From Escherichia coli (lineage in GTDB: Bacteria; Pseudomonadota; Gammaproteobacteria; Enterobacterales; Enterobacteriaceae), in assembly GCF_003334335.1 (NCBI RefSeq), contig NZ_QOWQ01000027.1: DNA of 64,000 nucleotides. One strand, 5' to 3'. Shown piece by piece: positions 61,774 to 63,237 of this stretch. Position numbers and translations under genes: made by a program. The notes beneath the pieces are model-generated. The model ran no database searches. It was not told the DNA's origin and saw only the letters and a list, made by a program, of their open reading frames with translations. Position 1 is the stretch's first letter. Each line of letters begins with the position of its first letter.

Positions 61774-63237
61774 TTAAAACTCGAAGTTAACGCCCATGTT
61801 GTAGGACACATCGCCATCACTCGCTGCAATACCCGCTTTCGCTGCGGTCTGCTCGTTGAAACGGTAACCAACACCCACGGCAACAGCCTGTTTATCACTG
61901 TACCCCCCCAGGGCAGCAGTGGCGTTGAATTTCCCCACACTGTACGGCTGGAAAAGCCCCGCCAGCGCTGCACTCTGTGCTGCTGCACGCTTCATCTCTT
62001 CGTGATTCTCACGAATTTGACGCTGCTGGCTGTTCAGGCGTGCATTATGCTCCTGCAACTGGCGAGTATTGGACTGAATAGCCTGTGTATTTTTAGTAAC
62101 CCGGCGGTCAACGCTACCAACTGCATAATCAATACGGTCTGTTCTGCCAGACAGAGCAACGAGACCATCATTGACGGCGATAGTTTTAGTCGCACCTTCT
62201 GCACGGGTAAGTTTTCCGTCAGGGTTCACACCAACTGTCGTTCTGGAGTCTGTATATTCACGAGACTTTTTCGCTTCGACTACAAGGCGGGTATTCGTAT
62301 CCTGAGCCAGTTGCTCAACACTGTCTTTTACCCGATCAACCTGACGAACAGTTGCTGCATCGGATGGGCGAGTTCCATCAGTCAATCCTCCAAGGGTGCG
62401 GGTTTTATATGCTTTACCAGAAGCCTCTTCATAACCAATGTAAACTTCATTATCACGAGTGGTTCGGGAGTTTGCCCCTAAGGCCACACTGTTTTTATGT
62501 GCAGATATTGCTTTGGCTCCTAATGCAACACCTTCAGTTGCATTTTTATCCACTTTTGCGTAATTACCTATAGCGGTACCATAAATAGCAGAACCATCAA
62601 CATAAGCAGCTGTTCCGGCGGCTGTAGATGCATTTGCATAAGCATATGTTCCCACACCTAAAGCCACACTTTGCCGTCCTAGTGCTGCAGACCATGATCC
62701 CACTGATGTTGACGCTTTTTCTGTAGCCTTAGCACCGTTACCAACAGCTACTGAGAACTCACCAGAGGCTTTCGCATCGCTACCCAGAGAAACCTTCCCA
62801 TTCTCCCCATCTTCGACGCTGAAACCTGTAATTTTTGTTCTCTGCAGACTGTATACTTTGTTATATACATCACGAACAACGCTATCAGTCATTCTGTGCG
62901 ACTGAGACTGTCCATTCTTTTTTTTCTCAGCTGTTTGAGCAAAATCGTTCAGCGCACCGTCATGAATTGTGTACGTAATGCCACTGCCATTGATTATTAC
63001 ATCCCCTTTTGAATCAAATGTGAAAAGTGACCTCTTCTTGCCGTTTTTCTCTTTTACTTCGTATCTGAAGTTACCATTACCGCCTGTCTTTACAACTTCA
63101 TAGGTATTCCCCCATTTACCTTCACCTATGGCATACGGCACTGTGTATTTTTCTTCCTGCGCACTCACCCCACCACTCATCACCAGAAGCCCGGCCAGAG
63201 AAGATGACAGGAGTGTCATTGTAAACTTTTTACTCAT
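61774..63237 (-). CDS. Trimeric autotransporter adhesin (YadA-like), resembling the Eib immunoglobulin-binding protein family
   Basis: 487 aa ORF: signal peptide [27 protein letters not shown], Ser/Gly/Ala-rich repetitive passenger, coiled-coil stalk, C-terminal YadA-type anchor ending [11 protein letters not shown]; Eib assignment from memory of the family. Confidence 0.75.

Follow-up and report, generated by a model that had tools for sequence, protein, structure and literature searches.

The window analysed is a stretch of 64,000 nucleotides of Escherichia coli DNA, and the features considered here (Table 1) lie towards its end, beyond the serine tRNA gene serT. Read on the minus strand, they comprise the 3' part of a tail-fibre-associated gene (orf-191E, DUF4376), an AT-rich spacer that extends exactly from the orf-191 stop codon to the next ATG, an open reading frame encoding 487 amino acids, an intrinsic terminator, and a small gene, orf-156E. 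The reading frame starts with ATG, 8 nt downstream of an AGGA Shine-Dalgarno sequence, and its product ends in NMGVNFEF. A YkgJ-family cysteine-cluster ORF (60506..60856, plus strand) lies inside the same insertion, between serT and orf-156E, and NCBIfam returned no family for either this ykgJ-like ORF or the orf-191E fragment.

Table 1. Coordinates of the features at the eibE locus, numbered from the first nucleotide of the 64,000-nucleotide window; codon and residue numbers refer to EibE.
Feature	Coordinates	Strand	Description and basis
tRNA-Ser(tga), serT	60280..60367		tRNA call
Right end of lambda-like prophage, insertion relative to K-12	60411..64000	.	blastn against K-12 MG1655; UCPROB-002 and JE86-ST02 layouts
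orf-156E, predicted LuxR-HTH/degenerate-receiver protein	61214..61687	minus	ORF-156E in AF151676.1; fold search
Intrinsic terminator	61721..61750	minus	24 nt past eibE stop; 11-bp stem, 7 G-C pairs, T-run; stem_loop in AF151676.1
eibE CDS (Ig-binding trimeric autotransporter adhesin EibE)	61774..63237	minus	487 codons + stop; tblastn
Membrane anchor, codons 413-487	61777..62001	minus	four beta-strands per monomer of trimeric barrel; Pfam YadA_anchor, 2lme
Stalk region with conserved 11-residue segment (D370-Y371)	62002..62427	minus	EibD 2xqh, 2xzr; invariant columns of EibA/C/D/E
YadA-like head (left-handed parallel beta-roll), codons 151-270	62428..62787	minus	EibD 2xqh, YadA_head repeats
Eib N-terminal domain, codons 27-150	62788..63159	minus	same as EibC; PHROG 33417 match
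Sec signal peptide, codons 1-26	63160..63237	minus	predicted cleavage VSA/QE; sequence inspection and hydropathy
AT-rich spacer, presumed promoter/regulatory sites	63238..63595	minus	358 bp, 32.4% GC
Block conserved across eib loci	63246..63268	minus	seven upstream regions aligned, including eibA and STEC1585
All-A/T inverted repeat TAAATTTATAAAATTAATTTTTAAATTTA in spacer	63335..63363	minus	stem_loop in AF151676.1, AF151674.1, AF151675.1
orf-191E, 3' part (DUF4376, tail-fibre-associated), cut by window end	63596..64000	minus	PHROG tail-fibre families, E=1e-77

The product of the reading frame was compared with phage records by tblastn, and matched the immunoglobulin-binding protein EibE of phage P-EibE from strain ECOR-9 (AF151676.1, AAF63045.1, Q9LA53) at 100% identity and 100% coverage, all 487 residues being the same. 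At the DNA level, 3249 bp of the window (60752-64000) were 99.94% identical to AF151676.1, with orf-191E, orf-156E, the spacer and the terminator the same apart from two adjacent nucleotides within orf-191E (63798-63799). Both primers of a published eibE-specific PCR (PMC4352079) were found exactly, at 62703 and 62590, and the calculated mass of the precursor, 51.6 kDa, fits the value given for EibE in a published table (52 kDa; Q9LA53; PMC7247748), which supports the assignment. Taken together, the full-length identity, the DNA match, the primers and the mass identify the reading frame as eibE itself, beyond a merely Eib-like gene, and its identity to a characterised Eib protein places it within that family; where the sequence-only reading had noted a resemblance to prophage-borne Eib proteins, the outcome is stronger, with the protein being EibE and the prophage location confirmed. 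We put at about 97% the probability that the reading frame is eibE, encoding a YadA-family type Vc adhesin carried as lysogenic-conversion cargo by a lambda-like prophage beside serT. The gene, its prophage setting and its immunoglobulin binding are already known, having been published in 2000.

At 63798-63799 the window reads GC and AF151676.1 reads CA, changing one codon of orf-191E. The allele in the window is that of orf-191D, from the eibD prophage, and the other allele is common to P-EibE, P-EibC, JE86-ST02 and UCPROB-002. This difference could be a small gene-conversion patch exchanged between co-resident prophages, or could be strain variation. Since the same two nucleotides separate the window from both AF151676.1 and the genomes with identical eibE, the strain is taken to be closely related to the sequenced ECOR-9 clone, without having to be that clone itself. 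As a separate observation, the primers described as 'eibC-specific' in PMC4352079 also match eibE exactly (62792..62811 and 63065..63084, predicted product 293 bp), so that PCR typing for eibC would cross-react with eibE.

The edge of the insertion relative to K-12 was placed by blastn against MG1655, to which homology ends at 60410, with 43 bp separating this point from the 3' end of serT; the serT-yccA junction of K-12 is uninterrupted, with yccA standing where the prophage stands in the window. AF151676.1 is a fragment without a chromosomal site, whereas in the window the prophage end abuts serT and hyaA. In the closest complete genomes, JE86-ST02 and UCPROB-002, eibE is 100% identical, and genes for terminase, portal, capsid, tail, J, Lom and tail fibre are followed by DUF4376 (orf-191), eibE, orf-156 and the YkgJ-family gene, and UCPROB-002 continues, like the window, with tRNA-Ser and hyaABCDEF. 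In JE86-ST02, what comes after the YkgJ-family gene is not serT but a second prophage's integrase. The position typical of eib genes, in the lambdoid late region between orf-191 (DUF4376) and orf-156, was found in the window, AF151676.1, JE86-ST02 and UCPROB-002 alike. A megablast search with eibE detected eib-like DNA in 54 of 5426 complete E. coli genomes, with all matches chromosomal and five of them at 99% identity or above; no K-12 strain was among the 54, which, together with the uninterrupted serT-yccA junction, upholds the earlier statement that the gene is absent from K-12.

Domains of EibE were assigned by profile and structure searches and by alignment with EibA, EibC and EibD, using stalk domain names from the EibD work (PMC7247746). 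The N-terminus begins MSKKF, with two lysines and a hydrophobic core, and has V-S-A at positions -3 to -1, predicting a signal peptide by heuristic check; EibC and EibD have the same residues 1-28. The following N-terminal domain is identical to that of EibC, and residues 27-150 fell outside every PDB and Pfam match, the domain being without a solved homologue. Ala, Gly and Ser make up 22%, 13% and 11% of residues 151-270, which contain several Pfam YadA_head repeats. The crystal structure of the EibD head and stalk, 2xqh, aligns with residues 151-396 (E=3.9e-92), residues 364-418 match the EibD stalk fragment 2xzr (E=8e-11), residues 413-486 match the YadA anchor structure 2lme (E=1.1e-17), and Pfam YadA_anchor (PF03895) covers residues 429-487 (E=2.3e-15). 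The two termini that characterise type Vc (YadA/Oca) proteins, a Sec signal peptide (by the heuristic check) and a C-terminal YadA-like anchor, are thus both present, and the passenger order of head, neck and coiled-coil stalk is given by the unbroken EibD alignment over residues 151-396 together with the match to 2xzr. To judge by these comparisons, EibE has all the traits testable from sequence that define the trimeric autotransporter adhesins and the Eib proteins. The YadA-family hallmarks listed by the sequence-only reading (signal peptide, Ala/Gly/Ser-rich head, anchor, NMGVNFEF end) were accordingly recovered, and its identification of a trimeric autotransporter held: the YadA_anchor match is significant, and the best-scoring proteins, EibD and YadA among them, are trimeric autotransporter adhesins rather than non-adhesin proteins.

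The position of eibE directly after tail-fibre and DUF4376 genes, along with weak matches of EibE to PHROGs labelled 'tail' or 'adhesin' (E=2.5e-9 and 6.9e-9), would also be expected if the protein belonged to the phage particle, serving in its structure or in host recognition as a tail-fibre-like adhesin, and not to the bacterial surface. The best PHROGs for EibE are of unknown function, however, and a Sec signal peptide joined to an outer-membrane YadA_anchor barrel is a feature of the bacterial envelope; the gene's own AT-rich spacer and terminator fit a separate transcription unit, and the literature describes surface display of Eib proteins on the bacterium. On the strength of the signal peptide, the anchor and the separate spacer and terminator, the tail-fibre reading was rejected as extremely improbable, and EibE is treated below as a bacterial surface adhesin.

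Within the family, EibC and EibD, both from ECOR-9 (EibD structures 2XQH and 2XZR), have the same architecture as EibE, with an identical or nearly identical spacer upstream. Protein identity of EibE in the alignment is 85% to EibC, 76% to EibD and 53% to EibA (81.5%, 71.4% and 54% by tblastn), and the signal peptide, N-terminal domain, Ala/Gly/Ser-rich head, saddle and anchor are common to all four. The differences from EibC and EibD are in the passenger: EibE is without 11 stalk residues (QKTSEVNEKVE), is missing one heptad (SIEKNSK) from the left-handed coiled coil, has a 3-residue insertion, and has a right-handed coiled-coil segment diverged from the version common to EibC and EibD. EibC and EibD also bind IgA, which EibE is not known to do. 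In DNA comparison with eibC, the first 807 nt of eibE plus the spacer are 96% identical, followed by a gap with no blastn alignment and then by a 3' part at 77% identity; in other genomes the match is confined to the 3' two-thirds of the gene, JNEC-KY204 matching only nt 585-1464, at 99.2%. By this pattern of similarity, eibE is a recombinant mosaic.

Outside the ECOR-9 proteins, YadA of Yersinia has in common with EibE the signal peptide, a beta-roll head of YadA_head repeats, the coiled-coil stalk and the YadA_anchor. With the NCBIfam YadA model EibE scored 116.9 bits, below the cutoff of 750, and is therefore no YadA equivalog, and the ligands described in the literature differ, being collagen and other matrix proteins for YadA and immunoglobulin Fc for Eib proteins. 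EibG, ClaA and ClaB of LEE-negative E. coli that make Shiga toxin (STEC) are likewise prophage-associated and YadA-like, and are linked to chain-like adherence. The layout of the eib/orf-156 cassette is the same in STEC genomes, and DNA matches extend over no more than the 3' two-thirds of eibE, with identities of about 84-87%. The Cla proteins are without the N-terminal domain and without Fc binding.

Immunoglobulin binding was considered at the level of the stalk, where a segment containing RIDYAVG, with VT.NTQ, is conserved; D370 is invariant in EibA, EibC, EibD and EibE, and Y371 in EibC, EibD and EibE. A preprint (bioRxiv 10.64898/2025.12.25.695649) reports that an EibG D391A mutant loses IgG Fc binding, and that the EibG position adjoining D391 corresponds to Tyr in its reference Eib. 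As D391 and A392 of EibG are adjacent, they were mapped to D370-Y371 of EibE, and we infer that this pair corresponds to the preprint's Fc-binding residues; the preprint's own numbering, 'EibE D378/Y388', is incompatible with the EibE sequence in the window. The Asp-Tyr pair needed for IgG Fc binding in the Eib stalk segment would, on this mapping, be present in EibE. In published work, two stalk regions of EibD bind immunoglobulin (PMC7247746), the ECOR-9 Eib proteins form heat-stable multimers above 120 kDa and confer serum resistance (PMC5450701), and, according to the same paper citing Sandt & Hill 2000, they bind the Fc of human IgG non-immunologically, EibE included. Trimerisation and Fc binding are documented in this literature for the identical protein, and by that identity would extend to the gene in the window.

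The altered stalk of EibE could be taken to mean that the protein belongs in the wider Eib/Cla neighbourhood of YadA-like adhesins, keeping aggregation or chain-like adherence and having lost immunoglobulin binding as is reported for ClaA and ClaB. The 11-residue deletion, the deletion of one heptad (7 residues), the 3-residue insertion and the diverged right-handed coiled coil all set the EibE stalk apart from those of EibC and EibD, the 3' third of eibE is only 77% identical in DNA to that of eibC, and the Cla proteins demonstrate that adhesion is separable from Fc binding. The window protein is nevertheless identical to the EibE that the literature calls an IgG Fc binder, its D370-Y371/VT.NTQ segment is conserved, and Cla proteins have limited similarity to Eib and lack the N-terminal domain that it possesses. 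Loss of binding is on these grounds very unlikely, and EibE is regarded as an Fc-binding member of the family.

What is known of type Vc secretion, together with the EibD structure (PMC7247746), allows a mechanism to be outlined. Sec export of EibE would be directed by its signal peptide of 26 residues, after which three C-terminal anchors (residues about 413-487) would assemble into one outer-membrane beta-barrel and the passengers would emerge through it to form a trimeric fibre, ordered as N-terminal domain, beta-roll head, neck, a coiled coil of right-handed twist, the saddle and a coiled coil of left-handed twist. The stalk, near the conserved 11-residue segment, would then bind IgG Fc non-immunologically. 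Surface display on the bacterium, autoaggregation and chain formation are described for Eib proteins in the literature. The sequence-only reading had gone on to call the gene a likely virulence or colonisation factor; 'virulence factor' was judged too strong, ECOR-9 being a commensal reference strain.

The spacer upstream of eibE is 32.4% GC compared with 51.1% for the whole window, only 0.36% of 358-bp segments being as AT-rich, and several of its stretches, up to 33 bp long, are A/T only; the very AT-rich upstream region of roughly 360 bp described by the sequence-only reading is therefore real, lying in the lowest 0.4% of such segments. Other stretches of the window at 36% GC or below (358-bp segments) are 27357..29019, 41700..42258 and 1..563, with a minimum of 29.9% at about 28404. 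The spacer is 100% identical to that of eibC and differs from that of eibD by 2 substitutions and a 5-bp indel, and these near-identical spacers indicate a cassette common to three prophages of one strain. The inverted repeat TAAATTTATAAAATTAATTTTTAAATTTA falls within its longest A/T-only run. Alignment of the upstream regions resolved the conserved block nearest the gene into a perfect 8-bp palindrome, TGTATACA (63261-63268), the hexamer GATAAT (63255-63260) and the AGGA of the ribosome-binding site (63246-63249). In the divergent loci eibA and STEC1585, the latter with a short eib gene, the clearest conserved stretch is TTTGTATACA(G/A)ATAA(T/A)TT, which contains TGTATACA and lies just 5' of the ribosome-binding site. 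Two other conserved upstream blocks, GGAATATCC and ATCAGAnTTTnTTTAT, were seen within 63238..63400. TGTATACA with GATAAT may be an operator or core promoter.

Searches for known regulatory elements were made in the same region. Rfam at a permissive E-value matched only tRNA-Ser in 59800-64000 and nothing in the spacer, leaving a riboswitch, sRNA or thermometer of a known family unsupported there. A sigma-70 consensus scan of the spacer found no minus-strand promoter, and a relaxed scan gave weak candidates only (8-9 of 12 positions), among them GTGTTA-17-GATAAT. A weak promoter would be in keeping with what the literature describes, namely basal expression that is poor and depends on conditions and activators: Eib expression is low in shaken culture according to published work, static culture induces it (PMC5450701, for the ECOR-9 Eib proteins; PMC4352079), wild-type expression is poor unless induced (PMC4352079), and Eib expression is enhanced by IbrB, of the unlinked IbrAB regulators (PMC7649339, citing Sandt 2002). 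Regulated expression, which had been proposed from the sequence, is documented by this static-culture induction and IbrAB activation. Transcription of eibE probably starts in the AT-rich spacer and would end at the strong terminator at 61721-61750. The GC content of eibE is 47.3%, against 54.6% for the adjacent tail-fibre-associated gene and the still lower value of the spacer, and low GC combined with a terminator of its own is how phage cargo genes ('morons') usually look; eibE fits this class of genes, which the phage life cycle does not require, by that terminator and by a composition distinct from the flanking late genes.

The sequence-only reading had also suggested silencing of the spacer, which would here be silencing by H-NS, with IbrAB or another factor as anti-silencer. 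Composition by itself makes this plausible, the spacer being AT-rich relative to the genome as promoter regions targeted by H-NS are, with long A/T-only runs and no strong sigma-70 consensus, and the poor uninduced wild-type expression described in PMC4352079 and the existence of an accessory activator point the same way. AT-rich spacers are, however, also typical of acquired phage morons, without silencing being implied; a literature search combining H-NS and eibG returned nothing relevant on H-NS at eib loci, and the near-invariance of the spacer among eibC, eibD and eibE of one strain means that its conservation says little about function. We hold silencing tentatively, at somewhat short of even odds.

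Downstream of the terminator lies orf-156, which accompanied eib at all loci examined. Its annotation is hypothetical, and its family is restricted to E. coli. No NCBIfam family was found for orf-156E, and Pfam gave nothing significant with the single sequence or with each member of an alignment, while orf-156 sequence profiles pointed weakly to LuxR/GerE helix-turn-helix (HTH) proteins (E about 0.15). A confident AlphaFold model of orf-156E was built on a 27-sequence alignment (pLDDT 88.9, pTM 0.84) and searched with Foldseek, and the top 39 PDB matches were all full-length response regulators of the NarL/FixJ type (E 3e-3 to 5e-2, probability up to 0.99), including DesR, LiaR, FixJ, RcsB, EvgA and VpsT. 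The receiver-like half is short; its strand 3 still ends in an invariant Asp (D52), but strand 1 is not followed by the acidic pair, and because this pair is missing, orf-156 is probably no conventional phospho-acceptor. The predicted NarL/FixJ-type fold with LuxR HTH is a new side observation of this analysis.

Homologues of orf-156 were found in two further settings. One, at 58% identity, follows a short YadA-anchor gene at a distance of 82 bp on plasmid-like contigs, and the other (P0033), at 50% identity, stands alone beside hpaBC, where a degraded adhesin gene was sought upstream and none was found. The gene may move together with genes for YadA-like adhesins, both on prophages and on plasmids. 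In the most far-reaching proposal, orf-156 would be a NarL/FixJ-like regulator of atypical kind, combining a degenerate receiver domain with a LuxR-type HTH, and could control the eib cassette, for example via the palindrome TGTATACA; this proposal is considered unlikely.

The locus illustrates that a reader of raw sequence is able to recognise a real, horizontally acquired surface-protein gene. The presence of eibE marks the window as belonging to an ECOR-9-like commensal lineage carrying an Eib prophage at serT, and the predicted fold of its downstream neighbour makes orf-156 a plausible candidate regulator of eib.
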